Position numbers and translations under genes: made by a program
Part shown: positions 4,788 through 20,022 of the stretch, in pieces
Position numbering within the stretch: position 1 is the stretch's first letter
Layout of the letters: each line of letters starts with the position of its first letter
IMG/VR virus record: IMGVR_UViG_3300010430_000045
Span: 1-57,062 of that record
DNA: 57,062 bases
Direction: 5' to 3' (one strand)
DNA from: a virus
Notes under the pieces: generated by a model
The model's input: the letters and a program-made list of their open reading frames with translations, nothing else
Told to the model about the DNA's origin: nothing
Database searches by the model: none

Positions 4788-5250
4788 GCGTGTTACCGCC
4801 ACCGCCAGCCGGTGCCTGCCCACCGCCCGAGTACGCCCCTGCTGCCTTGATGATCTTGTCGTCCGGATAGAGGTACTGGTCGACCTTGACCTTCGTTCGC
4901 ATCTGGCCGTCGTACTTCTCCTCGTAGTGGATGACGTGCCCGACGAAGATCTTGCCCAGCACGGACGTGTTCACCTCCTGCTGGCTGCGGGGGTCAAAGG
5001 GCCCGACCTTCGGGTGGAGCGAGCGGCACATCTCAGCCAGCTTCCAAAGCGAATTGTCCTTGATTACGAAGTAGTTCCACGGGATCTCAGTCCCCTTGTC
5101 TGGGTCGTCACCGATGACGGTGAACGTGCACTCGATCATGTCGTTCCCGGACTGGGACTTCGTGACCTCGGCCTTCGTAATGCGGAGGATATGGGCTCCG
5201 GGGCTGACCTTGCCGAATGTGTCGTACTTGTTGTCGTTGGGATCAAACAT
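4768..5250 (-). CDS. ssb: Single-stranded DNA-binding protein
   Basis: Track ORF 4768..5313(-). The ATG at 5250 (MFDPNDNKYD...) has AGGAG 7 nt upstream. A Gly-rich linker leads to the canonical acidic SSB tail ...GGGGNTHDDIPF. The gene lies directly downstream of the Sak4-like ATPase. Confidence 0.75.
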   Translation of the reverse strand: MFDPNDNKYDTFGKVSPGAHILRITKAEVTKSQSGNDMIECTFTVIGDDPDKGTEIPWNYFVIKDNSLWKLAEMCRSLHPKVGPFDPRSQQEVNTSVLGKIFVGHVIHYEEKYDGQMRTKVKVDQYLYPDDKIIKAAGAYSGGGQAPAGGGGNTHDDIPF

Positions 5251-6088: not shown

Positions 6089-6386
6089 CGCTATCCTCCA
6101 GCATCGCCATGACCAGGCCCAGCACCATGCTGTCATTGGCCTTGGCGTTCTTCATCTTCTGATATCGCTCGGTATGCATGGCCCCGCTGATGTACGAGAT
6201 CTCTCGGTCGAGAGCAGTGTTCCACCAGGCCGACTTTCGCTCCTCCTCGGTCGAAGCCATGATGTTCACGACGACCCGTTCACTCGGTCCGTGTGCCGGG
6301 TGCCTCGGTGGCATCGTCTCCATCGCTGTCAGCAACGACATTGCCAGCATCATCAGGTTCGTTGGTATCTGTTGCACCGTCGCCAT
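6069..6386 (-). CDS. Hypothetical protein (hydrophobic N-terminus, acidic C-terminus)
   Basis: Track ORF of 105 aa. The ATG at 6386 has GGGAGG 6 nt upstream. It overlaps the 3' end of the exonuclease gene by 107 nt in another frame. An alternative internal ATG at 6260 lacks an SD. Confidence 0.45.
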   Translation of the reverse strand: MATVQQIPTNLMMLAMSLLTAMETMPPRHPAHGPSERVVVNIMASTEEERKSAWWNTALDREISYISGAMHTERYQKMKNAKANDSMVLGLVMAMLEDSDASGDE

Positions 6387-7557
6387 TTCTATCCTCCCTG
6401 TACGTCTTGTAGACGTACCGTCCTGCCGCCTCCGGGCTCCAGTGTTTGCACAGCGAGGCGTAGTCGCACTTGCGGTTGAACTGGTGGCACATCGACGGGT
6501 TGCGCGGGTACTCCGCGCCGTGTTTGTGGCAGAGCTCGGACACGGCCTGGGCCATGCCGGACGGGTTGCCCTCCTCGTGCTTCTGCTTGATCTTCGCCCG
6601 CAGCGGTGCCACGCGTTCTCGCATGAGGCGAATGCGTGTGCCTTCGAGGTACAGCTCCCGTTCCGCTCGCGCGAGGTTCTCGTCCGTGATCGGAATCTCG
6701 ATCCGATGGAACCAGAAGTTTCGCTCGTCTCGACGCCGCAACGCCTTCCCGACCGTGATGTAGAAACCGGCCTCGGTGACGCCAGTGCCCTTGTCCAGCT
6801 TGTCGGTGTCGTGGAACCCGAAGCCGTTCTTGATGATGGCCCGGCCCCACTGGTCAGCCGTCGTGTGCGGGATGCCCTGTGGCTTCCGCAAGCGCTTCCC
6901 GGTGTTGATCTTCTCGAAGCTCGTCCACGGCCGAGGCTGGTTCGTGTAGGCGACGTCGAAGATGATTCCGCGCACCCTTCGTCCAGGGAACGCTCGCCGC
7001 ACCAGCCAGGCGTACGTCAGGCCCTGTGGCTTGTCCTGGTTCTTCTCCCGCCAGTCAGCGATGGGGATCGATGTCGACTTGTGGTCCACGACCCAGAGGT
7101 CGCCGTTGATCTCCACCAGCTTATCGAGGTAGCCGAGCCAGCCGGTCTTCGTGGACGGGTGACCGTTGGCCGTGAGGACGGCCGAGTCTAACCGCCTCTC
7201 GCTGAAGATGACCGTGCCGAGGTTTGGCCTGTCCTTCCAATAGCGCACATAGCGCTTCAGCAACCTGCGGGCCTCTCCGAATGCCTCGGCGGTCTCCTCA
7301 ACCCCAGTCAGGAAGTGCTGACCGCGGGAGTCCAGGTGCTCTTTCTCGGCGCGGTCGATCCAGGCCAGGACATCGTCCAGCGTCTCGTCGTCATACCGGT
7401 CCCGGAGTCGGTGCATGATCTGGGACCATAGGATCCCGAGGTACGGCTTCTTGTCCTTCGCCGGGCGGACGAGTCCGAGCCCGTACGAGAGGAACCAGCG
7501 CTGCGAGCAACCGGCGCTCGTGCGTTGGCTGTCACTGATGTATCGTAGCGTGCTCAT
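6280..7557 (-). CDS. PD-(D/E)xK exonuclease, Cas4/RecB/AddB-like with a 4-Cys Fe-S cluster
   Basis: Track ORF 6280..7638(-). The ATG at 7557 has GGAGG 4 nt upstream and forms an ATGA overlap. Nuclease motifs are GYLDKL...DLWVVDHKSTS (D...D-x-K) and QGLTY (QxxxY). There is one N-terminal Cys (SAGCSQRW) and a C-terminal cluster CHQFNRKCDYASLC. Confidence 0.8.
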   Translation of the reverse strand: MSTLRYISDSQRTSAGCSQRWFLSYGLGLVRPAKDKKPYLGILWSQIMHRLRDRYDDETLDDVLAWIDRAEKEHLDSRGQHFLTGVEETAEAFGEARRLLKRYVRYWKDRPNLGTVIFSERRLDSAVLTANGHPSTKTGWLGYLDKLVEINGDLWVVDHKSTSIPIADWREKNQDKPQGLTYAWLVRRAFPGRRVRGIIFDVAYTNQPRPWTSFEKINTGKRLRKPQGIPHTTADQWGRAIIKNGFGFHDTDKLDKGTGVTEAGFYITVGKALRRRDERNFWFHRIEIPITDENLARAERELYLEGTRIRLMRERVAPLRAKIKQKHEEGNPSGMAQAVSELCHKHGAEYPRNPSMCHQFNRKCDYASLCKHWSPEAAGRYVYKTYREDRNGDGATDTNEPDDAGNVVADSDGDDATEAPGTRTE

Positions 7558-7925
7558 ATTTCCTCCGTGGCACGATGGCTTCTGCAAATGTGGGCCGGCA
7601 CTTCGCCGAAGCGAACCTCGACCCAATCCAATGGGCACGGGCCGTCGCCTCGTCCACTCCGTGAGTAGTCAGCGACGGCCCGCAAGTAATCGATAAAGAG
7701 GTGGCGGTTGATGTCGCCCTCGTCCGAGCTCGCCCATCCCTCTTTGCTGCCGTCGGGGGCTACGAAGAACGAGCAGGTGTTATTCGCGGTCGGCCCCACA
7801 ATTTCGCTCACTGGGCCGCCGTCCTCGGTACCTCCGAAGATCTCGACCGCCTTGCGGCGCGCCCCGTAGATGGCGACGACATCCGTGCCGACGACGACGA
7901 TGGCGTTGTGTGCTGTGAGTCCCAT
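7554..7925 (-). CDS. Hypothetical protein
   Basis: Track ORF 7554..7973(-). The ATG at 7925 (MGLTAHNAIVVVG...) has GGAGG 7 nt upstream and a TGATG overlap with the methyltransferase stop. I recognise no family. Confidence 0.55.
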   Translation of the reverse strand: MGLTAHNAIVVVGTDVVAIYGARRKAVEIFGGTEDGGPVSEIVGPTANNTCSFFVAPDGSKEGWASSDEGDINRHLFIDYLRAVADYSRSGRGDGPCPLDWVEVRFGEVPAHICRSHRATEEI

Positions 7926-8590
7926 CAGGGAACCTCCATCAGGTCGAGGGCGAGCTGGCCCACGTGTCGCCACACGTCTCGCGGATGAACCCAGAACGTC
8001 TCGGTGCCACCGTTCGAGGGCGTGCCCCAGATGAACCAGCAGCAGGTTGCCGAGTCCGTCGAACCCTTGAAGCTGCCGGAGGGCAACCCGAAGGTCGGAC
8101 GTGGGATCCAGATCATCCTCGACGGGGGGTCGAGGTCAAAGAGGCTGGCCCGTCCTTCCCAGGGTTCGCGCTCCTCGAGGCACGGCTCGCCCCACGTGCA
8201 CCGCAGCAGGACTGCCACCCGTGTGCACTCGGCCAACAACCGACGGACGATTGCGGTCCCCTGGTTGAAGGGCGGGTTCGTGATCCCCCAGTCCCAGCCG
8301 CCCGACTTCGGTGGCGAAGCGTAGTCCCACGTGTAGTGGTGACCGTAGCGCTCGACCATTTCAGGGTCGATGTCGCCCGTGTTCACGAGCAGCCCTTTGC
8401 TGCGCAACACGGACGTGATGCCATTGGCTCCGGCGCACGGCTCGAGGATGGTATCGGTCGGCTTCGGACCGAGCTCGCCCAGGTTTTCTAGCAGTGCGAG
8501 CGTCGGCCACGGTGGAGTCCAAAACTGGTCGAGGTCCTTAACCTCGCACTCCGCACCAGCCGGTGCGAGCTCGAAGGGCTGGTCAGCCAT
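7925..8590 (-). CDS. N6-adenine DNA methyltransferase (orphan, gamma-type motif order)
   Basis: Track ORF 7925..8863(-). I chose the internal ATG at 8590 (MADQPFEL...), giving 221 aa. Motifs are FWTPP, the SAM-binding ILEPCAGANG and the catalytic ITNPPF. No restriction endonuclease partner is present. Confidence 0.75.
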   Translation of the reverse strand: MADQPFELAPAGAECEVKDLDQFWTPPWPTLALLENLGELGPKPTDTILEPCAGANGITSVLRSKGLLVNTGDIDPEMVERYGHHYTWDYASPPKSGGWDWGITNPPFNQGTAIVRRLLAECTRVAVLLRCTWGEPCLEEREPWEGRASLFDLDPPSRMIWIPRPTFGLPSGSFKGSTDSATCCWFIWGTPSNGGTETFWVHPRDVWRHVGQLALDLMEVP

Positions 8591-9035
8591 TCTTGCCACC
8601 CTCAGTGCACGATGGGCAATAGCCGTCAGTCTCCATGTGCCCGCCCTTCGAGACGATGCGCACCGTGCCCGTGCCTCCACAATCCACGCACACGCAATCC
8701 GGGCAGACTGACTGTAGGGCGTTGCACGCCATGCATCCACGCTGCTCGGCGATGTCCGACTCCAGCATTCGCCCGAGGCGAGACAAGTGAATCGCAGCGC
8801 GGGCGATGGAGCCCATGCACTGGTCGAGCTCGGCCTGTTGCCTGAGTGACAACGGGACGCCATTCATCGTGTCGTCCGAGTCGAGTTCTCGGAGGCTGTT
8901 CCGGACAGCGATGAGCTGAAGGCGGTGACCGTTCATGCGGAGCACGCGCGCGGTCTGCGGGTCCGCTATCTTCTCCTCGCGCGGGTCAGGCGTGATCGCT
9001 TGCGTGAGCATTTCTCGTGGGATGTTCAGATCCAT
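8583..9035 (-). CDS. DnaJ-type zinc-finger protein (four CxxC pairs)
   Basis: Track ORF 8583..9122(-). I chose the ATG at 9035 (MDLNIPREM...), which has GGAGGG upstream. The C-terminus carries CMAC...CPDC.CVDCGGTG...CPSC, and CVDCGGTG fits the DnaJ CxxCxGxG repeat. Confidence 0.55.
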   Translation of the reverse strand: MDLNIPREMLTQAITPDPREEKIADPQTARVLRMNGHRLQLIAVRNSLRELDSDDTMNGVPLSLRQQAELDQCMGSIARAAIHLSRLGRMLESDIAEQRGCMACNALQSVCPDCVCVDCGGTGTVRIVSKGGHMETDGYCPSCTEGGKNG

Positions 9036-9364
9036 TTCTCGTTGCCCTCCTCGATCACGCGCTCGATGTACTTGCTGAACGGGATGCTTCCGAGGCGGCT
9101 GAAGTCTTCGAGGTACGACCACGCCGGGATCGGCCTGGAGGTCACGGCACCCACGTCATCGCTGACGAGGTGCTCGGGGTCGCACGCCAGGACCCAGGCC
9201 ACGGAGGCGAGGATGTCGATGCCCGAGAACTCGCCATTGCGGTACCGACGCCAGGTGTGTTTCGCCCAGCCGGTCCGCCTCATGACCTCCTCGTCCGACC
9301 AGTGGCCGGTGACCGAGTGTTCGAGCATGGCGGCTCGGATTGCTACGTTGCGTTTGATGTTCAT
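9026..9364 (-). CDS. Putative helix-turn-helix DNA-binding protein
   Basis: Track ORF of 112 aa with AGGAG 5 nt upstream of the ATG. The N-terminal NIKRNVAIRAAMLEHSVTGHWSDEEVMRRTGWAKHTWRRYRNGE resembles an XRE-like HTH. Confidence 0.45.
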   Translation of the reverse strand: MNIKRNVAIRAAMLEHSVTGHWSDEEVMRRTGWAKHTWRRYRNGEFSGIDILASVAWVLACDPEHLVSDDVGAVTSRPIPAWSYLEDFSRLGSIPFSKYIERVIEEGNEKWI

Positions 9365-9437: not shown

Positions 9438-11177
9438 TTATTCTGGTCGAGCAGCCCCGATCGCCATCGTCGCGAGCTCGCTCATGTTCTCGAAGTTGTC
9501 GGTAGTCAGGACCTGTACCGCCTCTCGGGCGAGTCCGTTGTTCGGGTGGCCGTGGCCGATGTGGATGTAGTGAAGCTGTGACCCTTCGGGGAGGTACTCG
9601 AGACCGTCGCCGATCTCGCACTCGCCATCGGTGATGAACAGCACATCCGTCTTGGCGTCCATATACTCCGCCGCCACACGTAGGGCGCTCACGAAGTCAG
9701 TGCCGCCGCGAGCGCTCACCGAGGCCACGTCCCTGATCGTCTTGACCCGATCCCCAGGAGTGCCGAGGGCAACAGGGACGAGGAACGCATGGCTGTTGAA
9801 CTCGACGAGGTGGATATCTCGGCCGTGGATCGTAGCCGTTTGCATGGCAGCGATGGCGAACGCCTTGGCGGCCATCAGCCTCTCGTCTCGCATCGAGCTC
9901 GACGTGTCCATGCAGACCACGAACGGACCATGGGCCTTCGGCTCTTTGGACCTCACGTCGTAGCACAGCGTTTGCTTCTGCATGAAGCGGTACATCGTTT
10001 GTAGCTTCGTCGCGGGGTGGGCCAACCGCATCCGCTCGGACGGAAGCAGGCGCCGGAGGTCGTTGTCAGGCGTGATGGAATATGGGGTCGTCCCGCGACC
10101 GCCGTACTCGTTGTCTTCGATCGCCTTGAACGACCGCATCAGCCTCCCGACCCGCTCCATCAGCTCACGCATCCCGCGGTCTTTGGCGAGGAGGTCAGCC
10201 AACGCCATGGCCTCGGCCGGGTTCGCATCGGTACCTCGTTGGGCGGCCTCGCTACCCCAGGCGAAGCTCATCGCCGATTCGGCCTGGTCGAGGGCGTTGT
10301 GGGCTTCCTGTAGTCCCTGGGCCAGTGAGGCACGCATCCTGGCTTTGTCGCTCGCCGAGAGGTCGCCCGCTGGGTCCGGCTGCCCATTGGCATCGCCCTG
10401 GGGTTGCTGGTCTCCTCCGCTGCCTCCGGGGCTTCCAGGGTCACCCGGTTCGGTGGGCGGAGGCGTGGGCTCCGGCTCGGGGAATTCGCCGATGGCTGGA
10501 GCGACCACGTGCTCGGCAAGGTGGCGGGCGCACACGGTTGCCATCGCCGCGTCACGCCGGCAGCGCTCCTGGAGCTTCTGCCACTCGGGAAGCTGGTCGA
10601 GCTGCTCGTGGAGTGTCGACCGAGCCGGGCTCGTGTCGTCCTTCGCTTCCTGGCGCTCGGCCGTGGGTTCGTACAACCGACCCCAGAGCTCGTTGGTCAT
10701 CCGCCCCTCGTCCTCGGTAGCGAAGCGCTGCTCGAAGGCGAGGTCGATGATCTGCTGGGCGGACGACATGGATTGGTAGCGGTCCGTCGCCAGCCGGCTC
10801 ATCGCCCGAGTCACGCGCGAGAGGTTGAACAGGAGGTCGCCGTACGAGTTCGCATCCCGCATCCGCTGGACGTTGCTCCGTCGTGCCTTGCGGGCAGCAA
10901 CCCGGAGGTCCGTCAGCTTCTGTTGCGTGGCGACCACATCGTCTCGGACGTAGACGTAACCCTTCTTGATCCGTATCTCGACGATCCGCTGGGCGACCAG
11001 CTTCGCCTTGTGCTCGGTCGACACTGACTGCGTCTTCGTTTGGCCGGCGGAGCCGTTTCGTCCCCAGCGCTGCTCGACGACCCAGAGCCCGGTGGTCGGG
11101 TCGAAGCGCGTGGCCACGTCGTAGAACTTGTCCGTGTTCGTGGCGGGGTCGATCTTTTGGAGTCGGATGTTCGTCAT
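9438..11177 (-). CDS. WGR-domain / von Willebrand factor A (VWA, CoxE-like) fusion protein
   Basis: Track ORF of 579 aa with GGGAGGG upstream of the ATG. The N-terminal WGR domain is NTDKFYDV...VVEQRWGRNGSAGQTKT...RIKKGYVYV. A Pro/Gly-rich linker follows. The C-terminal VWA has the MIDAS motif FVVCMDTSSSM (nt 9908-9894) plus GGTDF and VLFITDGE. Confidence 0.8.
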   Translation of the reverse strand: MTNIRLQKIDPATNTDKFYDVATRFDPTTGLWVVEQRWGRNGSAGQTKTQSVSTEHKAKLVAQRIVEIRIKKGYVYVRDDVVATQQKLTDLRVAARKARRSNVQRMRDANSYGDLLFNLSRVTRAMSRLATDRYQSMSSAQQIIDLAFEQRFATEDEGRMTNELWGRLYEPTAERQEAKDDTSPARSTLHEQLDQLPEWQKLQERCRRDAAMATVCARHLAEHVVAPAIGEFPEPEPTPPPTEPGDPGSPGGSGGDQQPQGDANGQPDPAGDLSASDKARMRASLAQGLQEAHNALDQAESAMSFAWGSEAAQRGTDANPAEAMALADLLAKDRGMRELMERVGRLMRSFKAIEDNEYGGRGTTPYSITPDNDLRRLLPSERMRLAHPATKLQTMYRFMQKQTLCYDVRSKEPKAHGPFVVCMDTSSSMRDERLMAAKAFAIAAMQTATIHGRDIHLVEFNSHAFLVPVALGTPGDRVKTIRDVASVSARGGTDFVSALRVAAEYMDAKTDVLFITDGECEIGDGLEYLPEGSQLHYIHIGHGHPNNGLAREAVQVLTTDNFENMSELATMAIGAARPE

Positions 11178-11203
11178 GGTTCAGCCCTCCCGTTGCGTGT
11201 GAC

Positions 11204-12367
11204 TCACAGGCTCAGTGCAGCGTGCATCTCGGCCATCATCTCGGCGCGGACTTCCTTCAGCCTCGCGATGACACGCCGAACCTCGTCGTGGTCCACCGTC
11301 TTCGGGTCACGGTCGAGCCGCTCCAGCTCTTTGATATTCGCGTTCACGGTCTTGATCAGGTCGTGCATCACGTTTGGTCGGTCGGCGCTGGACCGCGGGA
11401 GGTTACTGAAGGTCGCCAGGGTATCCTCGATCTCGGCCTCGATGTTGAGTGCCACCGCGGTCTCGGGCGCGCCGGATTGCATCACGGCATCGGCCACGGC
11501 CTCACGTTGCTCGGGCGTGCCCCAGAGGACATGTCGCAGCACCTTCAGGTGAGCGAACTTGATGGCATCGTCGCCGCAAACGACCGCGTACCCAGCCAGG
11601 GCCTTGCTGGCTTTGTACCAGCGCCGCGAGGAGACGTGCACGCCGTTGATGACCAGGCGGCTGCGGATGTCCAGGAGGGCGTTGATGATGCCGTCGCTTA
11701 TGTTCTCGTGGAGCTTCACGCACTTGTCTTCAAGCTCCGTGAGGTCCGCCGCGCTGAGCACAGGCGCGCTCGGTCCGGGGAGCGAGTTACGGATGATCGC
11801 CTTGAAGGTGGAGTCGGCCTGCGGTTGCTGGATCTCCAGCCGGAGCACGAAGCGATCCCACAATGGGAGCAGGGACTCGTCGTCGCCGGAACGGTCGAGG
11901 GAGTCGATGGAGCGAGGCCACTCGTTCGAGAGTCCGACCAGCGTCCTGAGCTTGCACGGGATGCCATCGACGACCCGCTCGTTCATCATGCCCAGCAGCG
12001 AGTTCAGCATGGGCGAGTTCGCCTTGAACACTTCGTCGAGAACGACGAGCTCGGCTTCCGGCGCACGGCCAACCGTCCGGCGCTCGTAGATGTCCTGCTG
12101 GAGCTTCGCCAGACTGTGATGGCCGAGCACCTCGTCCGGAGCCGAGAAACGACTCAGCAGGTGGTAGAACAGGTCGCCCGGGATGTAGTGAGCCAGCCGC
12201 TCGGCCAGGAACGTCTTGCCCTCACCCTGCGGCCCGACGAGTGCGACGTGGTCGTTCATCACGACAGCGGTGAGGCACAGGTCGATGGCTTCGGACTGGT
12301 CGAGGACCTGGAGGTTCAGGTCGGCCCGGATTCCGGCGAGCTTCTGAGGTGCGATTGAGGTTGCCAT
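11204..12367 (-). CDS. MoxR/CbbQ/CobS-type AAA+ ATPase
   Basis: Track ORF of 387 aa with GGAG 6 nt upstream. Walker A is VALVGPQGEGKTFLAERL and Walker B is ELVVLDEVFKANSPMLNSLLGMMNER. It has a single AAA+ module and lies immediately upstream of its VWA partner. Confidence 0.8.
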   Translation of the reverse strand: MATSIAPQKLAGIRADLNLQVLDQSEAIDLCLTAVVMNDHVALVGPQGEGKTFLAERLAHYIPGDLFYHLLSRFSAPDEVLGHHSLAKLQQDIYERRTVGRAPEAELVVLDEVFKANSPMLNSLLGMMNERVVDGIPCKLRTLVGLSNEWPRSIDSLDRSGDDESLLPLWDRFVLRLEIQQPQADSTFKAIIRNSLPGPSAPVLSAADLTELEDKCVKLHENISDGIINALLDIRSRLVINGVHVSSRRWYKASKALAGYAVVCGDDAIKFAHLKVLRHVLWGTPEQREAVADAVMQSGAPETAVALNIEAEIEDTLATFSNLPRSSADRPNVMHDLIKTVNANIKELERLDRDPKTVDHDEVRRVIARLKEVRAEMMAEMHAALSL

Positions 12368-12408
12368 GATCGTCTCCGTTCTCGGGGTTAGCTGGCGCGT
12401 GGCCAGGC

Positions 12409-12425
12409 TGAGCCAGCGTGGCTCA
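12409..12425 (-). other. Perfect 7-bp hairpin in the intergenic spacer between the 498-aa orphan gene and the AAA+ gene
   Basis: TGAGCCA-gcg-TGGCTCA. It overlaps an alternative pairing, GCTGGC(12391-96)/GCCAGC(12412-17). GCGTGGC also occurs twice (12396, 12416). Confidence 0.4.
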
Positions 12426-12471
12426 CGGAGGCCGGTGGAGTATGCACCCCATCGGCTACCGTGAAGCTACG

Positions 12472-13968
12472 TCAGCCTTGGACGGCTCCCAGCACGGAGT
12501 CGATCACCGCCGCTTGGCTGGGGAGGTGACTCGAGCCGAAGGTCACGCCCTCGGCCTTGACCTCCCAGGCGTACCCGTGCTCGTCCTTCGTGATGATGAC
12601 CCGGCCGGCGATCCCGACCCCGCTCCCCTTTGCGTCCTTGGCCGCAGCCCGGAGCTGACTCGGAGTCGGGAGGCTGAAGTCTTCGACATCAGCGAGGCAC
12701 GTGGCGGGCTCAGGTCCGACCTCGGTCTCGGGCTCGACCAGGGGCGACTCCATCAGCTCGGCCATCAACTCAGCCCGGATGCGCTCACGCTCGGCTGCCA
12801 TCTCGGCCTTGACCTCCTCGCGGATTCGCTGGCGCTCGGCCTCAGCGTCGAAGGCAGGTTTCTTCTCGCGCTTCGTCGTCTTCTTGGCCGCCTTCGCCTC
12901 TTTGCGCTCGTTGATGACGTCGGTCAGGTGGGTCTCGACTTGCGTGATGCGCTCCCGGAGGTGGTCAGCCTTGAACTCGACGAGGTCAGCGTAGACGTTG
13001 GCCGTTTCCATCACGTTCTTGATGTGCCCGAGCTTCGAGGCCAGCGCGGACGCCCTGCTGATCTCCTCGATGGACTTCATCTGCTCCTCGAGCTCGGCGA
13101 TCTTCGAGCCCAGCGTTTCGTTGGCCCCGGCCTGAATCGCCTTGATCGTCCCCTCTTTGGCGAACTGCGGGATCAGGTACAACGTGTTGTCTCCGACGCG
13201 CTCGACGAGCTCGCCCAGAAGCCGCATGAGGTGGGCTGGGTTCTCGTCTCCTCGTGCCTCGATGTTCGGGACGAAGTAGATACCGCCCGTGGCGCGGAGG
13301 TTCAGGATGTGCATCTCACCCGCATACAGCAGGCGCCGGATCAGCCCGTGAATCCTGCTGTTGTCCACCTTGCCACCCTCGTTCCGGATGCGCTCGCACG
13401 CGGACGAGATCAGCTTCCCGGTGACCTGTACGTCGTGGGGCGTGACCTCTTTGTAAGTGCTGGCGTAGCCCGTGACCTCCATGCGAGCGAGGTACGCGTC
13501 GTCCGCCTCGTCCCTGAGCCTCGCCTCGTTCATGAACTTCCAGCTGACCTCCAGGGACTTGTTGTCGAGCTCGACGATGGCGAGCTGAGCCAGAGAGTGC
13601 GAGCGCTTCCCGGTGGCCTTGCCAACGTGGACAGCGTAGCGGGCGATGTCGCCATCCTCGGGAAGCTCGAGGCAGAACACCTTGCGGCTGTTGTCCTTCG
13701 CCTCGTCCTTCGTGTAGCGATGATTGATGGCGCGGAGTCGGCGGCGGAACACGGTGCCGTGCTCGACGCCCGTGACCTCCCAGCCCGAGAACGCCTCGAC
13801 CTTGATGGCATCCAGGGCATCGTTGACCACGTCGGCCTCGATGTAAGTGCTGGCGAGCGTGTGGTAGGCGATGTAACCGATCATCTCCTGGTCGGGAGTG
13901 GAGGCGAGCTCGGCAGTCGCGTTCGAGGTCTCGATGGTGGAGGTGGGGGCGTTGGTAGCGTTCGTCAT
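12472..13968 (-). CDS. Large hypothetical protein (globular N-domain + charged coiled coil)
   Basis: Track ORF 12472..14070(-) starts at a TTG. I prefer the ATG at 13968 (MTNATNAP...), which has AAGGA upstream and gives 498 aa. It contains ...LRATGGIYFVPNIEARG... and a Lys/Glu/Arg-rich coiled coil (EAKAAKKTTKREKK...ERQRIREEVKAEMAAERERIRAEL). I recognise no family. Confidence 0.6.
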   Translation of the reverse strand: MTNATNAPTSTIETSNATAELASTPDQEMIGYIAYHTLASTYIEADVVNDALDAIKVEAFSGWEVTGVEHGTVFRRRLRAINHRYTKDEAKDNSRKVFCLELPEDGDIARYAVHVGKATGKRSHSLAQLAIVELDNKSLEVSWKFMNEARLRDEADDAYLARMEVTGYASTYKEVTPHDVQVTGKLISSACERIRNEGGKVDNSRIHGLIRRLLYAGEMHILNLRATGGIYFVPNIEARGDENPAHLMRLLGELVERVGDNTLYLIPQFAKEGTIKAIQAGANETLGSKIAELEEQMKSIEEISRASALASKLGHIKNVMETANVYADLVEFKADHLRERITQVETHLTDVINERKEAKAAKKTTKREKKPAFDAEAERQRIREEVKAEMAAERERIRAELMAELMESPLVEPETEVGPEPATCLADVEDFSLPTPSQLRAAAKDAKGSGVGIAGRVIITKDEHGYAWEVKAEGVTFGSSHLPSQAAVIDSVLGAVQG

Positions 13969-14066
13969 GGTGTCATCCTTGTCGCCCGTGGCGACGGTTG
14001 GGGTTGATGGTGCGAAGTGCACCAGGGAGGGGGCGAGAGTATGTGCTCGCCCCGAACCCGGTGGAC

Positions 14067-14807
14067 TCAACGCCAGAGGTTCTCGTCAGCAGCGATGGCG
14101 GCCGCCGCCCCGTGCCTCGCCTTGATGGCGACGCGGGCGGAGCACAGCAGCATGTTGGAGCTACGGAGCTTCGCATCAAAGAAGCCCGTCTGCGGGTTGG
14201 TCTCGATGTCGATCAGGATGGGGCCGTCGATGCCGCGCATCTCCAACAGCCCAGCGCCATTCTCGATGGCGGTCATCGCCTTCAGCTCGAAGCTCAGGTG
14301 CTCCTCGTGGTGACTGGCCGTAACATCCAGGCCCCTCGCTGTGTTCTGGATGATGTCGTACAACGCGGTCGATGCCTTGTCGCACCAGAAGCGCCACTCG
14401 TCCACGCCTTTCTCGTACTCACGCCTGAGGTGCTCGAGCTCGTTGGCGTTGTGGCACTGGACCTCGTCCATCAAGCACGAGGGGCAGAGGGGCCAGTAAC
14501 CTTCCTCGTCACACTCTTCGCAATGGGGATCTTCGTCGAGGACGAGGAAGCGTTGCCCGCGGGCGTTCTCTTCAAGGGTAAGGCCGTGCTCGGTGGCGAG
14601 CTCGATGATGGAGGCGGCCGAGGTGCAAACGATGGTGCCGCGACCGAGGCTCCACTTGCGCCCGGACTCGGGGAGGTGGGCGGCGCGGGAGGAGTGTCGG
14701 AGGCCGTCGATGACTTTAGAGATAGATTCGCGCCCGCCCTCCTGGGCCACGAGGGAGCGGATGTCAGCAGCGAGGTCGGACTGGATGCGGGTGGAAGCGT
14801 TGTTCAT
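14067..14807 (-). CDS. Hypothetical protein, first gene of the leftward operon
   Basis: Track ORF of 246 aa with a strong SD (GAAGGAGA) 6 nt upstream of the ATG at 14807. It carries the Cys cluster CEECDEEGYWPLCPSC. Confidence 0.65.
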   Translation of the reverse strand: MNNASTRIQSDLAADIRSLVAQEGGRESISKVIDGLRHSSRAAHLPESGRKWSLGRGTIVCTSAASIIELATEHGLTLEENARGQRFLVLDEDPHCEECDEEGYWPLCPSCLMDEVQCHNANELEHLRREYEKGVDEWRFWCDKASTALYDIIQNTARGLDVTASHHEEHLSFELKAMTAIENGAGLLEMRGIDGPILIDIETNPQTGFFDAKLRSSNMLLCSARVAIKARHGAAAAIAADENLWR

Positions 14808-14861
14808 CGTGTCTCCTTCAGACTCGGGGTTGGTCGCCCAATCGACAACTTGGGTCGCTCA

Positions 14862-14891
14862 ATTTATGGGGCCTGGCGTGTTCAAAGTCAA
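14862..14891 (-). promoter_or_regulatory. Candidate sigma70-like promoter for the leftward operon
   Basis: The minus strand reads TTGACT (14891-14886), an 18-nt spacer, then ATAAAT (14867-14862). This lies about 55 nt upstream of the ATG at 14807 in the AT-rich control region. It is a motif match only. Confidence 0.35.
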
Positions 14892-15003
14892 CATAGAAAT
14901 GTAAATCAGTTACAATCAGTCAGAAACACGCCTTTTCTCAACACGTTGGCTGGACGTCGTCAGCGGCGGGGTCGTGTGTGCACTGTCCCACATTTCAGCA
15001 ACC

Positions 15004-15108
15004 TGCGGGAACCTCGGCTGATTGCTGTGTGTTACGGGAATCTGTAAATGCTGTGTACTACGGGATCCTGATATTCCCGTATGTAGAATCTCGAGCTCGT
15101 AGGATCTC
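15004..15108. repeat. Array of degenerate operator/iteron-like repeats in the divergent control region
   Basis: T(A/G)CGGGAAyCT-like copies occur at 15004-14, 15033-43 and 15059-69. A 20-mer, ctgtgtgttacgggaatctg (15025-44), matches ctgtgtactacgggatcctg (15051-70) at 16 of 20 positions. An inverted copy, ATTCCCGTA, lies at 15073-81. GTAGrATCTC occurs at 15083-92 and 15099-108, and CTCGTA occurs three times. Confidence 0.7.
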
Positions 15109-15146
15109 TCCTCGTAGCTCATACAAAGTATCTCGTATATCCCCCC

Positions 15147-15152
15147 TATAAT
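15147..15152 (+). promoter_or_regulatory. Perfect TATAAT hexamer (possible -10 for the rightward operon)
   Basis: The sequence is ccccccTATAATcccccc. No convincing -35 element lies 16-18 nt upstream, so this is weak. Confidence 0.25.
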
Positions 15153-15308
15153 CCCCCCAGACCCACCCGGACCGAACCCGCTTGCGGACCTCGCGCCTGG
15201 TCGGCTAGACTCGCCCGCGAAGGAGGATGAAGGAGTTCGCCAGCCGCTGTGCTCCGACCTCCCCGAAAACCCACCCGCCGCGTAGCGGCGCACACGGAGG
15301 TCACGCAC

Positions 15309-15932
15309 GTGAAGCTCAACAGCCAGAAATACAAGCTCGAGGACGTGGACTCGCTCGTCGTCCACCCCGAGAACCCGCGCACAGGCGACACCCGTAAGAT
15401 CCGGGAGTCTATCAAGGCCAACGGATTCTACGGGGTGCTCGTAGTCCAGAAGTCCACCCGCTGCGTACTCGCGGGGAACCATCGGCTGATCGCCGCTCGT
15501 GAAATGGGCGCCAAGAAGCTGCCGGTGATCTGGGTTGAGTGTTCCGACGATGAAGCGCTTCGCATCATGCTCGCCGACAACCGCACCTCGGATCTCGCCA
15601 CGTACGACAACGCGAAGCTCGCTGAGCTTCTGGAATACGTCCAGCAGGATGTTGGGACCCTGATCGGTACGGGGTACACGCTCGCTGAGTTGAGTGCACT
15701 CGCTGGGGACGTAGATCAGGACGTGGACCCGGAAGCGATGTGGACCGGGATGCCTGAGTTTCAGCAGGACGACCTCACGGCCCACCGAACGATCACAGTT
15801 TCCTTCGCCTCGGACGAGGACGTGGAGGAGTTCGCCAAGCGCCTGGAGCTGAAGACCGTCTCCGCCAAGACGAACAAGGTCTGGTTCCCGTGGCGGGAGC
15901 GCATGTACCTGACTGACAAGGTGATGAAGTGA
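15309..15932 (+). CDS. ParB/Srx-like nuclease-domain protein
   Basis: Track ORF 15249..15932(+) starts at a GTG. I prefer the GTG at 15309, which has GGAGG 8 nt upstream. ParB N-domain motifs are LVVHPENPR and AGNHRLIAAREMG. The C-terminal MPEF...ITVSF..DEDVEEFAKRL region resembles the linker of phage ParB-methylase fusions, but no methylase domain follows. Confidence 0.75.
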   Translation: MKLNSQKYKLEDVDSLVVHPENPRTGDTRKIRESIKANGFYGVLVVQKSTRCVLAGNHRLIAAREMGAKKLPVIWVECSDDEALRIMLADNRTSDLATYDNAKLAELLEYVQQDVGTLIGTGYTLAELSALAGDVDQDVDPEAMWTGMPEFQQDDLTAHRTITVSFASDEDVEEFAKRLELKTVSAKTNKVWFPWRERMYLTDKVMK

Positions 15933-16855
15933 AGATCGAGCAGCCACGATACCCGATCTACCTGCCCTCGAAGGGTCGCTACGAGACCCGGCTCACGATG
16001 AAGCAACTGGAGTGGATGCAAACGCCCCACCACATCGTCGTCGAAGAGCAGGAATACGACCAGTACGCTGCCGTCACCGACCCGAAGTTCGGCACGATTC
16101 TCGTGGTCCCGCGACGGTACTTCGAGGAGTACGAGGTTTGCGACGAGCACGGGCTGACGAAGTCCACCGGTCCAGGCCCAGCCCGGAACTTCGCCTGGGA
16201 CCACTCGACGGAGACGTACGGCGCGAAGCGGCACTGGGTTATGGACGACAACATTCGCGGGTTCGCTCGCTTCCACCGGAACCAGATCGTCAAGTGCGGC
16301 AACGGCGTGCCGTTCGCTGCCATGGAGGATTTCTGCGACCGCTACAAGAACGTCGCCATGGCTGGGCCACAGTACGAGATGTTTGCGATGGTGCGTAAGA
16401 AGTATCCACCGTTCGCGGTCAACCGCCGGATCTTCTCGTGCAACCTGATTCTGAACGAGATCCCGATGCGTTGGCGCGGCCGCTTCAACGACGACGTCAT
16501 CCTCTCGATCGACATCATGGAGGCTGGCTGGTGCACGCTGCTCTTCTACGCCTTCCTGCAGATGAAGGTTCAAACCATGCGTGTCCCGGGAGGGATGTTC
16601 GATCTGTACAAGGACGGCACGTACGAGAAGTCGAAGATGCTGGTGGACCTGTTCCCGCAGTATGCGAAGATCGTGAAGCGCTACGGGCGTGTTCATCACA
16701 GTGTCGACTACAGCCCGTTCAAGCGCAACAAGCTGGTGCCCATCGAGGGTGACATTCCGAAGCGCGAATACGCCTGCGACCTGCGCTACCGTGAGTCGGG
16801 CGAGCTCGTTGGCGACACCAGCACCAAACTCGCACCAGGGAAGGTCCATACATGA
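15929..16855 (+). CDS. Putative GT-A-fold nucleotide-sugar transferase (motif-level call only)
   Basis: Track ORF of 308 aa with a GTG start in a GTGA overlap with the ParB gene stop. An N-terminal strand, PIYLPSKGR, and an acidic VMDDN about 90 aa later match the spacing of the GT-A N-terminal motif and DxD. The protein resembles phage TET/JBP-associated-type glycosyltransferases only loosely. Confidence 0.4.
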   Translation: MKIEQPRYPIYLPSKGRYETRLTMKQLEWMQTPHHIVVEEQEYDQYAAVTDPKFGTILVVPRRYFEEYEVCDEHGLTKSTGPGPARNFAWDHSTETYGAKRHWVMDDNIRGFARFHRNQIVKCGNGVPFAAMEDFCDRYKNVAMAGPQYEMFAMVRKKYPPFAVNRRIFSCNLILNEIPMRWRGRFNDDVILSIDIMEAGWCTLLFYAFLQMKVQTMRVPGGMFDLYKDGTYEKSKMLVDLFPQYAKIVKRYGRVHHSVDYSPFKRNKLVPIEGDIPKREYACDLRYRESGELVGDTSTKLAPGKVHT

Positions 16856-17832
16856 AAGCGCTCGTCACAGGTAACCTCGGCTTCATCGGCTCGCACCTCA
16901 CTCGTGCCCTTCTGGATGCTGGCTGGGAGGTCGTCGGCATCGACAACGGGTGCACAGGCAGCGAGGCAAACCTCCGTCGCCTCGATATACCACCTGGGGC
17001 CGTCCACCAGCTCGGAGGATTGCTCGACGTGGCTGATTTGGACATTGGACCGGGGTCGTTGGCGCTGGACATCCTGCGGGATGTGACGGTCATTTTCCAC
17101 CTGGCGTGCCCCGCCTCCCCGAAGATGTATGCGGCCCACCCTCGCGCCACCTTTCGGGCGCTTTGTCAGGGCACGATGGTGCTGGCTCAGCTCAGTCAGC
17201 TGACTGACTCCACCCTCGTTCTCGCCTCGACCTCCGAGGTGTACGGCGACCCCGACTGCCATCCTCAGGAGGAGTCGTATCGGGGCGCGGTGAACACGCT
17301 CGGCCCACGCTCGATCTACGACGAGGGCAAGCGTCTCGCTGAAGCGCTGCTGTACCACTTTGCGAGCTCGTGGGTCGTGGTCCGGCTGTTCAACACCTAC
17401 GGCCCGAACATGGCCTGGGACGACGGACGGTTGCTCCCGAACCTCTTTGCTCAGGGCATCAGCGGCCACCCGTTGACGGTCTACGGAGATGGGTCGCAGA
17501 CCAGGAGCTTCTGCTACGTGAGCGATACCGTTCGGGGCATCGTCCAAGCGTACGCCTCGCCCTTGATGTTGGAGAGTCAGCACGAGCCCTGGGGCGTGTT
17601 CAACATCGGCAACGATGACGAGCGCACCGTGCTTTCGGTGGCCGAGCGCATCGCCGAGATGTACGGGGTCGAGATTGCCCGTGAAGCGCTTCCGCAAGAT
17701 GACCCCGTGAGGCGCCGCCCGGACATCACGCTCGCCCGTGAGTGCCTGGGCTGGCAACCCCGCGTCGCCTTCGATGAAGGTCTCCAGCACACGCGCGAAT
17801 ACTTCGAGCGCCTCGCCATGGAGCTGAAATGA
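16852..17832 (+). CDS. NAD-dependent SDR, UDP-glucuronate decarboxylase (UDP-xylose synthase)-like
   Basis: Track ORF of 326 aa with an ATGA overlap. The Rossmann motif is GNLGFIGSH and the catalytic residues are STSEVYGDP / YDEGK. UXS-diagnostic strings are HPQEESYRGAVNTLGPRSIYDEGKRLAE, RLFNTYGPNM..DGRLL, GDGSQTRSFCYVSD and DDPVRRRPDI. Confidence 0.8.
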   Translation: MKALVTGNLGFIGSHLTRALLDAGWEVVGIDNGCTGSEANLRRLDIPPGAVHQLGGLLDVADLDIGPGSLALDILRDVTVIFHLACPASPKMYAAHPRATFRALCQGTMVLAQLSQLTDSTLVLASTSEVYGDPDCHPQEESYRGAVNTLGPRSIYDEGKRLAEALLYHFASSWVVVRLFNTYGPNMAWDDGRLLPNLFAQGISGHPLTVYGDGSQTRSFCYVSDTVRGIVQAYASPLMLESQHEPWGVFNIGNDDERTVLSVAERIAEMYGVEIAREALPQDDPVRRRPDITLARECLGWQPRVAFDEGLQHTREYFERLAMELK

Positions 17833-19304
17833 ATATCTGCCTCGTGATCCCCCCGTCGCCATTCCTGCTGGACGAGCGGGTCTTCGCCAGCCTCGGAGTG
17901 CTGCGTGTGGCGTCCTCGCTAGAGGCCGCTGGGCACGCCGTCACCGTGCTCGATCTCAGCGGTGTTGAAAATCACCTCGACGCCGTTGTCGCCTGCCTAT
18001 CAACCGTGGGGCCGTCCATCGTCGGCATAACTGCCACTACTCCACAAGTGCCCGCGGCCCTGGAGCTCGCCACGGTTATCCGAGACACTTCCCCGGAGGT
18101 CCGACTTATCCTCGGCGGCCCCCACGCCACCCTCGTCTACGCCTCCCGGCGCGTGAGCAGTGGCCGAGCGGAGCGACACATCCGCCAAGTCGAGGACGCG
18201 TTCGACGTCATCGTTGTCGGCGACGGCGACTTCGCCATCCACACAGCCATCGGCGACGACCCACCGAAGGTCGTGGACGCCGACGACACGAAGAGCCCGC
18301 ACTGGATGTCCAGCAAGGACTTCGACGAGCTTCCGCTCCCCGCCCGCCACCTGATCGACATGAGCTCGTACCACTACGAGATTGACGGGAGGAAGGCGAC
18401 GAGCATCATCAGCCAGCTGGGCTGCCCCTTCCGCTGCGGCTTTTGCGGTGGGCGAAGCTCCAGGGCGTTCCGGGTCATACGGTCGAGGAGTGCCGCGTCC
18501 GTGGTGCGTGAGATTGCCCACCTGCACCAGGTCTACGGCTACGAAGGTTTCATGTTCCAAGATGACGAGCTGAACGTGAACCGTGGCTTCGTGGACCTCC
18601 TGAAGGCGATTTGCGAATACCAGGACGCACACGGCGTCGAGTTCCGCATGCGGGGCTTTATCAAGTCGCAACTGCTCACCGAGGAACAGGCGGAGTGGAT
18701 GTATCGTGCAGGCTGGCGCTGGATTCTGACGGGCTTCGAGGCGGCCGACGACGGCATCCTCGAGAGTATCTCCAAAGGTGCAACGCTGGAGGAAAATACG
18801 AGGTGCGTCCGCATCGTCAAAGCCGCTGGCATGAAGATCAAAGCGTTGATGTCCGTCGGCCACCCCGGCGAGTCGCGCGAGTCCATCGCCGCCATCTCGG
18901 AATGGCTCATCGCCGAGGACGTGGACGACTTCGACTGCACCGTGATCACTTGCTACCCCGGCACGCCTTACTACGACCAGGCCATCAAGCACGAGACGCT
19001 GGATGGCGTGTGGACGTACACCCACGCCAAGACGGGTGAGCGCTTGCACTCCATCGACCTCGACTACACGTCCACGCCTGACTACTACAAAGGCGACCCC
19101 AACGATGGATATCGAGCGTACGTCTTCACCGACCATCTCGACCAGGCTGAGATTGTTGAGCTTCGCGACGAGGTCGAGGCAACGGTGCGTCGCGAGCTTG
19201 GAATTCCGTACTATCAGGCCTCAGCAGCGCTCCGATACGAGCATTCGATGGGGCAGGGATTGCCTGGTTTCATGCTGAAATACGACCCTCGCGCCAATGC
19301 GTGA
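17829..19304 (+). CDS. B12-binding-domain radical SAM enzyme (class B rSAM)
   Basis: Track ORF of 491 aa with an ATGA overlap. The N-terminal cobalamin-binding-like Rossmann region is ICLVIPP...GVLRVASSLEAAGHAVTVLDL...IVGITATT...ILGGPHAT. The radical SAM cluster motif CPFRCGFC lies at nt 18423-18446. Confidence 0.8.
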   Translation: MNICLVIPPSPFLLDERVFASLGVLRVASSLEAAGHAVTVLDLSGVENHLDAVVACLSTVGPSIVGITATTPQVPAALELATVIRDTSPEVRLILGGPHATLVYASRRVSSGRAERHIRQVEDAFDVIVVGDGDFAIHTAIGDDPPKVVDADDTKSPHWMSSKDFDELPLPARHLIDMSSYHYEIDGRKATSIISQLGCPFRCGFCGGRSSRAFRVIRSRSAASVVREIAHLHQVYGYEGFMFQDDELNVNRGFVDLLKAICEYQDAHGVEFRMRGFIKSQLLTEEQAEWMYRAGWRWILTGFEAADDGILESISKGATLEENTRCVRIVKAAGMKIKALMSVGHPGESRESIAAISEWLIAEDVDDFDCTVITCYPGTPYYDQAIKHETLDGVWTYTHAKTGERLHSIDLDYTSTPDYYKGDPNDGYRAYVFTDHLDQAEIVELRDEVEATVRRELGIPYYQASAALRYEHSMGQGLPGFMLKYDPRANA

Positions 19305-19388
19305 GAATGTGCGCTGGATCGGGGGTTGATGTTCAACTACGATAAGTGTGCGAGACGATAGAGGAAAGTCGAGCTGGAGGGCGAACAC

Positions 19389-19922: not shown

Positions 19923-19958
19923 CTCACGCTAGACGCCCAACACGACAACGTTTTTTCG

Positions 19959-19988: not shown

Positions 19989-20022
19989 CGTCCTCGAGTC
20001 TCCAGGAGACACGGAGGGCAGC

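Follow-up and report, generated by a model that had tools for sequence, protein, structure and literature searches.

A conserved DUF6744-MoxR-VWA gene cassette of phage and mobile-element recombination modules, and its rare WGR-fused form in an uncultured tailed phage

What might a MoxR-family AAA+ ATPase and a VWA protein with a WGR domain be doing at the head of a phage's early replication operon? The question is raised by positions 9438 to 14807 of IMG/VR virus record IMGVR_UViG_3300010430_000045, the whole 57,062-nucleotide stretch of which was analyzed and is called the window here. Four open reading frames (ORFs) occupy the minus strand of this region, placed exactly as a first-pass annotation of the DNA had them, and encode, in operon order, proteins of 246, 498, 387 and 579 residues. 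The last three are members of a DUF6744-MoxR-VWA cassette, about 30 copies of which were found in phages, conjugative elements, plasmids and metagenomes, using annotation together with profile hidden Markov models (HMMs) built in this study for DUF6744, MoxR, the VWA protein and the WGR domain. With moderate confidence we propose that this RavA/ViaA-like cassette specifies an AAA+ remodeler of the recombination/replication module, which the WGR domain would tether to DNA.

The 387-residue protein is a MoxR family member, with an AAA+ module, both Walker motifs intact, a MoxR-type lid and an adjacent VWA gene. Its best Pfam match was bpMoxR (6.3e-32, 110.8 bits against a cut-off of 27), followed by AAA_5 (1.3e-16, 61.3 bits; cut-off 22) and, over the lid, AAA_lid_8 (2.4e-9, 37.3 bits; cut-off 22.8). 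The VWA gene begins 26 nt past the ATPase stop codon, bearing out the earlier placement of a MoxR ATPase directly before the 579-residue VWA protein, and this MoxR-VWA pairing is kept across all the related loci; on three short metagenomic contigs (L001-L003), the ATPases are 65-70% identical to that of the window. Among NCBIfam models the nearest was RavA (NF010054; 9.5e-36), which scored 123.9 bits against an equivalog cut-off of 681 and aligned to ATPase residues 9-288 alone, at positions 10-291 of 498. No CobS, CobT or CbbQ model of Pfam or NCBIfam was found on the window proteins at E<=0.01. The first-pass annotation had held out an ordinary CobS/CobT-like auxiliary metabolic pair as the case that would undo its proposal of a DNA-directed machine; we rejected this case because no such model matched, the nearest named relatives being RavA and ViaA.

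In the 579-residue protein the WGR domain is followed by a basic helix, then by a helical middle part that includes an acidic, proline/glycine-rich linker, and last by the VWA domain, which forms the C-terminus. In its AlphaFold2 model (predicted local distance difference test score, pLDDT, 79.4), four N-terminal strands with one helix lead into a helical center and on to a C-terminal VWA fold. That the N-terminal domain is a genuine WGR domain, as had been noticed at first pass, is supported by its Pfam match (4.6e-13, 49.5 bits against a cut-off of 22, over positions 2-75 of the 79 in the model), by the signature residues W38-G39-R40, G42, Q46 and K72-G73-Y74, which are invariant in all four WGR-VWA fused homologs, and by the matches of a WGR-segment profile to the solved WGR domains of PARP3, PARP2 and PARP1 (5e-7 to 3e-3). 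The same profile also matched the Bacteroides protein 2ra8. The domain was modeled as four strands (residues 3-52) and a helix (55-71) at a pLDDT of about 90; when the whole chain was searched with Foldseek, the list was filled by VWA matches, with no structural WGR match among them, and a PDB sequence search with the whole protein returned nothing significant. The WGR domain carries a net charge of +7 (isoelectric point, pI, 10.2), and with the helix that follows it (residues 1-112) a net charge of +11 (pI >10), while the remainder of the protein is acidic. Such a basic module fits the idea of a DNA-directed machine.

At the other end of this protein is a VWA domain with a complete MIDAS (metal-ion-dependent adhesion site) on a Rossmann-like alpha/beta fold. 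The Pfam model VWA_2 matched residues 420-519 (1.5e-11, 45.3 bits; cut-off 27), and the top 50 PDB matches to the AlphaFold2 model were almost all VWA-domain structures, at a Foldseek probability of 1.00. Besides DTSSS, the MIDAS motifs GGTD and TDG are present at residues 491 and 516; across 22 homologs D424, S426, S428, G491, G492 and D517 are invariant, and the whole MIDAS set including T493 is invariant or nearly so. The VWA domain and MIDAS site that the first-pass annotation described were thus found, whereas its term "CoxE-type" was inexact, for at E<=0.01 the window protein gave no VWA_CoxE match, and that model was seen only on homologs. The nearest NCBIfam model was ViaA (NF008230; 1.6e-16), with 60.6 bits against an equivalog cut-off of 500 and a partial alignment of residues 294-509 to model positions 175-413, and by these scores the protein is ViaA-like, and not a ViaA ortholog.

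The 498-residue protein, which like its 246-residue neighbor had been said to match nothing, turned out to be homologous to DUF6744. It gave no direct Pfam match even at E<=10, and the relationship is a transitive one: the protein is 37% identical (2e-93) to the product of L003:1587-2954, which itself scores on DUF6744 (PF20529; 3.3e-11, 43.1 bits against a cut-off of 27). It is also 45% identical to the N-terminal half of a protein from L001 (L001:1402-4209) in which DUF6744 and MoxR form one in-frame fusion of 935 residues with a linker of about 60. An exhaustive phmmer search with the first 345 residues against 1.84 billion representative proteins found 33 relatives, and DUF6744 scored on 25 of the 31 sequences aligned. 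Judged by this homology, the protein is a diverged DUF6744 member and the conserved third member of the cassette, in a family that is small, divergent and uncharacterized. Word-indexed searches with the protein or with a five-sequence DUF6744 alignment returned the identical sequence only, coiled-coil words having probably swamped other candidates; tblastn of the protein against phages gave no match, a PDB sequence search with the DUF6744 profile gave nothing significant, and a literature search on DUF6744 found no mention.

The AlphaFold2 model of this protein (pLDDT 83.7) predicts an N-terminal alpha/beta domain (29-145), a helical region with the family-conserved motif LRxTGGIYFVP (225-234), a coiled-coil hairpin of about 135 residues (272-407), an acidic disordered linker and a C-terminal alpha-beta4-alpha domain (436-497). 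The long coiled coil noticed at first pass is therefore recovered in the predicted helices 272-407. The alpha-beta4-alpha domain is restricted to the WGR clade, occurring in the same four loci as the WGR fusion. In a Foldseek search of the PDB no match was better than E = 0.12, so that no function can be read from the fold; four uncharacterized viral proteins did match the model, one of them the product of gene 25 of halovirus HVTV-1.

These three genes travel together. In a word-indexed search of 5.8 billion protein clusters, the WGR-VWA protein had only three full-length relatives, 50%, 47% and 39% identical to it, and each of the contigs bearing them, L001-L003, carries a homolog of the 498-residue protein, then MoxR, then the WGR-VWA gene. 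A metagenome scan with patterns derived from a 10-sequence VWA-family alignment brought in 80 loci. Among the closer relatives with at least 2.4 kb of sequence upstream of MoxR, DUF6744 was present in 15 of 17, and in three more it could be seen on shorter flanks. Pattern scans of viral and metagenome contigs with single proteins or with the WGR-VWA clade alignment found nothing, and tblastn of the L007 DUF6744 protein against plasmids gave no match. The co-occurrence of four genes, which the first-pass annotation had proposed to survey, thus holds for DUF6744, MoxR and VWA, which recur together, and fails for the 246-residue gene, which was seen only in the near-identical contig L004, a 5.4-kb ENA metagenome contig 99.96% identical to the window region.

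The cassettes of Moorella phage MTATph1, a Brevibacillus marinus plasmid and uncultured phages and conjugative elements are true family members, with three homologous genes in mostly the same order, often beside genes for PD-(D/E)XK, Rad52 or Sak4, DnaN and RadC; they differ from that of the window in having neither WGR nor the C-terminal domain of the 498-residue protein. Their products are annotated as hypothetical, ATPase or VWA proteins, and we found no literature on them. Alongside the cassettes of an NCBI genome contig (L010:6606-6980) and of the B. marinus plasmid (L101:8115-8540), a small DUF6573 protein is encoded, which may be an occasional fourth partner. In both HVTV-1 (L020, 9815-10966) and MTATph1 (L005, 4364-5269), the DUF6744 gene lies shortly downstream of the gene for the ribonucleotide reductase (RNR) large subunit. 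A tight group of human-gut metagenome loci (L064-L100) carries a distant MoxR-VWA pair (VWA about 1e-38 and MoxR about 1e-62 to our profiles) with no DUF6744 within about 5.7 kb upstream, and is probably a separate, chromosomal RavA/ViaA-like lineage.

The VWA family profile starts at residue 107 of the window protein: the WGR domain has been added cleanly at the N-terminus, as some 100 residues in front of a ViaA-like protein of about 480. The fusion was found in four loci only, the window (with L004) and L001-L003, a count taken from the word-indexed search and pattern-seeded scans, as distinct from an exhaustive census of architectures. None of the 80 metagenomic loci showed a WGR domain to our profile even at E<=1, and this profile does reach distant WGR domains, namely E. 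coli YehF (1e-8) and a viral stand-alone WGR protein (8e-7). The first-pass annotation knew of no WGR-VWA fusion in a phage replication module, and such fusions proved rare, with three other proteins among 5.8 billion clusters and none among the 80 metagenomic relatives; they are a rare side branch of a wider family that is no better explained. One of the fused proteins, P0002 (L002:1470-3779), has a further N-terminal extension of about 180 residues with CxxCxGxG zinc-finger motifs before the WGR domain, an order of zinc fingers and WGR that recalls the layout of PARP1. The stand-alone viral WGR protein (191 residues, L013 1599-2174) belongs to an IMG/VR viral contig of 180 kb, where a lone DUF6744 gene (9650-10750) lies about 7.5 kb away and there is no MoxR or VWA gene within 10 kb.

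The 246- and 498-residue genes are the first of the operon by the order of minus-strand ORFs, as had been stated. The 246-residue protein has no match in Pfam, PHROG, NCBIfam or PADLOC, in agreement with its description as an orphan, and phmmer against the ORFs of 18 loci (L001-L014 and L016-L019) found it in L004 only. By its sequence the gene appears real, and it is a lineage-specific ORFan. We considered the protein as a fourth subunit and rejected it for want of conservation; because the gene is adjacent to the cassette and not conserved with it, it is probably not part of the machine.

The recombination and replication neighbors of the cassette recur across elements. Around 14 metagenomic cassette loci, the Pfam families seen most often on same-strand ORFs within about 5-6 kb were Rad52/22 (7), PDDEXK_1 (5), the beta clamp DnaN (5) and RadC (3), counts that rest on simple ORF calls. 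The relaxase-bearing contig L007 has RadC, DUF6744, MoxR, VWA and PD-(D/E)XK genes in consecutive order, and L008 has MoxR, VWA and RadC, with Rad52 and a Cas4-like PD-(D/E)XK nuclease further downstream and DnaN later. The viral contig L011 (49% G+C), whose DUF6744 protein is about 21% identical to that of the window, matches most of the window gene order: ParB-like, DUF6744, MoxR, VWA, PD-(D/E)XK, Sak4, replication initiator and primase/helicase. The Bacillota loci (L016-L019) bear marker genes of conjugative transposons, plasmids and prophages, namely TcpC, actin-like segregation proteins, a resolvase and a holin. The recurrence of recombination and replication neighbors leads us to view the cassette as a long-standing accessory of the DNA-handling early module in several kinds of mobile element.

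In the window, positions 1-123 and 56940-57062 (123 nt each) are 100% identical, which makes it a complete genome of about 56.9 kb that is either circularly closed or terminally redundant. Its source is an uncultured tailed phage whose tail is contractile; from about 26 kb onward, the plus strand carries the genes for large terminase, portal, head protease, major capsid protein, tail sheath and tape measure. The G+C content of the whole window is about 63%, the large terminase is at most 38% identical to that of any GenBank phage, megablast of the 9438-14807 region found no nucleotide match among GenBank phages, and a scan of the window for tRNA genes found none. All four minus-strand ORFs of the region have a Shine-Dalgarno-like GGAG or AAGGA 5-9 nt before an ATG, and their G+C contents at third (0.82-0.88) and second (0.39-0.47) codon positions equal those of the terminase and capsid genes; a TTG start at 14070 for the 246-residue gene was dropped, as it lacks a ribosome-binding site. 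A divergent region of 441 nt upstream and replication/recombination genes downstream on the same strand (Table 1) place the four genes at the head of the early replication operon, where the first-pass annotation had put them.

A promoter scan of this divergent region gave a single weak promoter-like match, on the plus strand. The region is AT-richer, and at 15023-15070 it holds a pair of direct repeats of 22 nt, TGCTGTGTGTTACGGGAATCTG and a copy 82% identical to it; they are 26 nt apart and could be operator or iteron sites. Downstream of the cassette, the 112-residue helix-turn-helix protein is kept in L001 (1.8e-20) and weakly in L002, and may be a regulator that travels with the phage lineage rather than with the cassette. 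The C-terminus of the 179-residue protein has a DnaJ-type zinc finger (CxxC...CxxCxGxG...CxxC), and the protein has a homolog in L002 (8e-8). Facing the early operon, positions 15249-22400 of the plus strand hold a probable DNA-hypermodification cluster, in which no TET/JBP dioxygenase was identified; the unassigned ORFs at 20023-20991 and 22739-24097 gave no matches.

Table 1. Features of the early operon of the window and of the probable hypermodification cluster facing it, followed by the loci in which the DUF6744-MoxR-VWA cassette was found
Feature	Position or locus	Strand	Remarks
ORFan, 246 aa, with CxxC...CxxC motif	14067-14807	-	First gene of operon; good coding signal
DUF6744-family protein, 498 aa from ATG; putative third subunit	12472-13968	-	Transitive homology; AlphaFold2 layout
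MoxR-family AAA+ ATPase, 387 aa; putative motor	11204-12367	-	Pfam, NCBIfam, motifs
Walker A GPQGEGKT	12212-12235	-	ATPase residues 45-52
Walker B LVVLDE	12032-12049	-	ATPase residues 107-112
WGR-ViaA-like VWA protein, 579 aa; putative adaptor	9438-11177	-	Pfam WGR and VWA_2
WGR domain	10947-11171	-	Residues 3-77; Pfam PF05406
VWA domain	9498-10082	-	Residues ~366-560; complete MIDAS site
MIDAS DTSSS	9894-9908	-	Residues 424-428
Divergent intergenic region	14808-15248	.	441 nt; between early minus-strand operon and plus-strand ParB-like gene; presumed promoter/operator region
Downstream genes of the same operon	2332-9364	-	Profile matches to families; context for cassette
Helix-turn-helix (HTH) protein, 112 aa	9026-9364	-	HTH_26, 0.0055 (weak); directly downstream of WGR-VWA gene
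Zinc-finger protein, 179 aa	8583-9122	-	Two genes downstream of cassette
DNA methyltransferase	7925-8863	-	
phrog_11375 protein	within 2332-9364	-	
PD-(D/E)XK exonuclease	6280-7638	-	
Sak4-like annealase	5243-6136	-	
SSB and replication initiator	within 2332-9364	-	
Primase/helicase	2332-4236	-	
ParB-like protein	15249-15932	+	Hypermodification cluster
TET-associated glycosyltransferase TAGT	15929-16855	+	PF20691, 1.3e-38
NAD-dependent sugar epimerase	16852-17832	+	Hypermodification cluster
B12-binding radical SAM enzyme	17829-19304	+	~3 kb from cassette
HTH_11 protein	within 15249-22400	+	Hypermodification cluster
DUF5131 protein	21504-22400	+	Hypermodification cluster
Cassette	window, L004, L001-L003		Profile HMMs
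Cassette	Moorella phage MTATph1, CDS0119/0115/0114		After RNR large-subunit gene
Cassette	L007		Contig with relaxase, coupling protein, RadC
Cassette	L010		NCBI genome contig with serine recombinase
Cassette	L011, L012		IMG/VR viral contigs
Cassette	L016-L019		Four Bacillota genomes: Thermovenabulum, Lysinibacillus, Ureibacillus, Bacillus
Cassette	18 metagenomic loci		VWA-seeded metagenome scan
Cassette	Brevibacillus marinus plasmid		Consecutive genes that RefSeq independently labels "DUF6744 family protein", AAA family ATPase and VWA domain-containing protein

Which known systems does this cassette resemble? Of the named systems, E. coli RavA-ViaA matches both proteins best, with RavA aligning over the AAA+ module and ViaA over the helical region and VWA domain. 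As in the window, its ATPase gene comes before its VWA gene, and in the VWA protein a long helical region at the N-terminus precedes a MIDAS domain at the C-terminus. The window proteins differ in scoring far below the equivalog cut-offs, in the size of the ATPase (387 residues, aligning to the 498-position RavA model by its AAA+ module alone), in having DUF6744 as a third partner and WGR on the adaptor, and in their setting, which is that of mobile-element recombination modules instead of enterobacterial respiration and membrane biology. A cellular precedent by analogy for the association of WGR with MoxR and VWA is the E. coli K-12 cluster yehF-yehH(molR)-yehI-yehK-yehL-yehM-yehP-yehQ (L015 4475-18945), which brings together WGR, MoxR (YehL) and VWA (YehP), along with a SWIM zinc-finger protein; YehF is annotated as a PF05406 family member, and molR/yehH is a pseudogene. 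In that cluster, however, WGR is found on separate proteins rather than fused to VWA, DUF6744 is lacking, and the resemblance of YehL and YehP to their window counterparts is only remote (2e-8 and 2e-6 to our profiles). A literature search on the yehL/yehP/yehQ cluster found no functional study. The WGR domain of PARP touches the DNA break, and the window domain is homologous to the WGR domains of PARP1-3, keeping the W-G-R signature and giving profile matches to 2eoc, 6f1k and 2cr9 (5e-7 to 6e-4); the window protein differs in having no PARP catalytic or helical regulatory domain, its output being a VWA/MIDAS domain that would act as adaptor for an AAA+ motor. Among viruses, AAA+ and VWA genes are paired in Bacillus phage 0305phi8-36 (gp66/gp63), haloviruses Hardycor1 and HVTV-1, and Acidianus two-tailed virus (ATV; p618/p892), often in a replication or accessory module (PMC2147016, PMC7911831), and such pairs are also known in jumbo phages (PMC7824862). 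Unlike the window, 0305phi8-36 has no DUF6744 within 6 kb, and in HVTV-1 the DUF6744 gene lies 15 kb from an AAA/vWA pair of a different, unrelated subfamily.

In the general model of MoxR-VWA function, built on systems such as CbbQ-CbbO, Rea1/midasin, NorQ-NorD and RavA-ViaA, a hexameric AAA+ motor pulls a VWA adaptor whose MIDAS metal grips an acidic residue of the target (PMC7159879, PMC7911831), and every residue that this motor-plus-MIDAS-adaptor model requires is conserved in the window proteins. By this model, we propose that DUF6744, MoxR and VWA form an ATP-driven protein-remodeling machine like that of RavA/ViaA, in which the MoxR ATPase would be the motor, the VWA protein would be the adaptor, its intact MIDAS site gripping an acidic residue of a target protein, and the DUF6744 coiled-coil protein would be a third subunit working directly with the motor. 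Binding of DUF6744 to the motor is suggested by the one DUF6744-MoxR fusion together with the consistent adjacency of the two genes. The basic N-terminal WGR domain, apparently gained by the adaptor in this phage lineage, would hold the machine on DNA, for instance where there is an end, a nick or a gap. Early in infection, the machine would remodel proteins on, or strip them from, DNA ends or replication and recombination intermediates, and thereby allow the phage exonuclease, annealase and replisome to act; the target may be a host protein. That it is a helper for the phage exonuclease-annealase pathway in particular is suggested by the neighbors of the cassette. As a lead in this direction, the RecBCD inhibitors of phages lambda and P22 are encoded in a like place, beside exonuclease and annealase genes. 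This three-protein assembly, the DNA binding of its WGR domain, its target and its biological role are all what we infer from the genes and their surroundings.

Several observations weigh against this proposal of a DNA-tethered remodeler. WGR domains are known in phage proteins, and those of bacterial and phage proteins, MolR-like bacterial ones included, have been read as DNA-binding domains of transcription factors, not as break sensors (PMC7824862). Most cassettes have no WGR or other recognizable DNA-binding domain, and targeting to DNA may thus be specific to one lineage. The DUF6744-MoxR-VWA family is known from genes alone, and the role given to DUF6744, which has no solved structural relative, is a guess. 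A DUF6744-MoxR fusion was seen just once, in one metagenomic contig, where an assembly error or an indel could have produced it. The three genes also occur apart: DUF6744 stands without an adjacent MoxR-VWA pair in L013 and L014, which are large viral contigs, and in halovirus HVTV-1, and MoxR-VWA stands without DUF6744 in phage 0305phi8-36, L047 and Acaryochloris pREB2. Finally, the neighborhood of the cassette cannot tell a role in recombination from one in early anti-defense.

This last point bears on the main rival explanation, which we think somewhat unlikely, namely that the cassette is a dedicated counter-defense device that dismantles or disables a host immune complex, possibly one assembled on DNA, and that replication in a defenseless host can do without. 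Consistent with such a device are the position of the cassette at the very start of the early operon, its presence in several kinds of mobile element (phages, elements with relaxase and type IV coupling protein or with TcpC, and plasmids), and its proximity to genes for RadC, a methyltransferase and ParB-like proteins, as are usually seen in regions for establishment and anti-restriction (PMC5512222). The MoxR gene of coliphage Bas54, bas54_0063, is moreover reported from experiment to be an anti-defense gene, needed against the predicted defense system DS-28 (bioRxiv 10.1101/2025.11.20.689424). However, the Bas54 ATPase is not detectably related to that of the window and is not among the 25 tblastn matches to it, and the preprint names no VWA or DUF6744 partner. 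The conserved neighbors of the cassette are recombination and replication genes and not known anti-defense genes, and the cassette has its place in a replication gene order most of which is shared across very distant phages. Because gene order is kept over such distances, a core accessory of the replication module fits better than a fast-turnover anti-defense gene.

Two further explanations are improbable. A MoxR metallochaperone, in which the pair would mature a phage enzyme by inserting or repairing the metal cofactor of, for example, RNR or the radical SAM protein in the manner of CoxD-CoxE, NorQ-NorD or CobS-CobT, would have the cassette do what MoxR-VWA pairs commonly do (PMC7159879), and it draws on the RNR genes that precede the cassette in MTATph1 and the DUF6744 gene in HVTV-1, and on the B12-binding radical SAM gene of the window. 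The last is, however, on the opposite strand and in a different module, and most loci have neither RNR nor radical SAM neighbors, while recombination genes recur. To the CobS, CobT and CbbQ models that found no match in the window proteins can be added those of NorD and CoxE (Pfam, NCBIfam), and a nucleic-acid-binding domain such as WGR is of no obvious use in cofactor insertion.

The other explanation, to which we give a similarly small chance, is an element-borne defense or exclusion system of the MoxR-vWA ternary type, a sensor-and-chaperone module that would guard the infected or lysogenic cell against competitors. The ternary conflict systems described by Kaur, Burroughs, Iyer and Aravind in 2020 (PMC7159879) likewise have a MoxR and vWA core with one conserved third protein, a three-component layout that the window parallels; the top Pfam match of the window ATPase, bpMoxR, is the MoxR of these very systems, and there was a weak PADLOC match to WGR_XIII (2.8e-6). 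In those systems, though, the third protein is VMAP, iSTAND, a two-domain FtsH or a beta-propeller protein, none of which scored at E<=10 on the window's third component, which is DUF6744. No effector domain (peptidase, nuclease, TIR or the like) or effector-associated domain (EAD) was found on the three window proteins, the 579-residue protein having only WGR and VWA, and none occurs consistently nearby. The PADLOC system models gave nothing beyond P-loop noise. Ternary systems are enriched in the chromosomes of multicellular bacteria, whereas cassettes of the window type are found on mobile elements beside recombination genes, and in the window they are predicted to be co-transcribed with replication genes in an apparently lytic-type early operon. 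Viral MoxR-VWA pairs have also been linked to tail and virion assembly (PMC7824862, PMC7911831). A virion-assembly chaperone, modeled on ATV p618 (MoxR) and p892 (VWA), which act in tail development, or on the MoxR-vWA-peptidase pair proposed for group 2.2 jumbo phages, is very improbable and was rejected, as the cassette has no peptidase domain, is part of the early replication operon, with the structural genes on the other strand, and is also present on plasmids and conjugative elements that make no virions.

Returning to the DNA-tethered remodeler, a bolder form of it, which we regard as unlikely, is that the cassette is an unrecognized AAA+ "stripper" of mobile elements, acting at DNA ends or gaps to remove a host complex that binds or degrades ends, be it RecBCD/AddAB or a DNA-bound defense complex. 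If this form of the proposal is true, the exonuclease and annealase of the element itself could then take over, the cassette would be an enzymatic counterpart of the Gam-type inhibitors, and its PARP-like WGR domain, in this lineage, would be a viral DNA-break sensor. Phages and archaeal viruses have been known to carry MoxR-VWA pairs since 2007, and we know of no function assigned to any viral MoxR-VWA pair in a replication module. Viral MoxR-VWA pairs, bacterial three-component MoxR-vWA systems and WGR domains in phage proteins are already known; we found no description in the literature of the DUF6744-MoxR-VWA cassette, of its link to recombination modules or of a WGR-VWA fusion, and searches on MoxR with RadC or Rad52, and on WGR with MoxR and vWA, brought up no such cassette. 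Our studies indicate that what was taken for a pair in fact comprises three genes, the third of them encoding a domain of unknown function, that this cassette is tied to the recombination/replication module across phages, conjugative elements and plasmids, and that a rare natural WGR fusion points to DNA as its site of action. In this way the vague label of "chaperone" becomes a set of workable experimental questions, and if the target proves to be a host nuclease or immune complex, mobile elements would have in the cassette a new and energy-driven means of becoming established in the cell.

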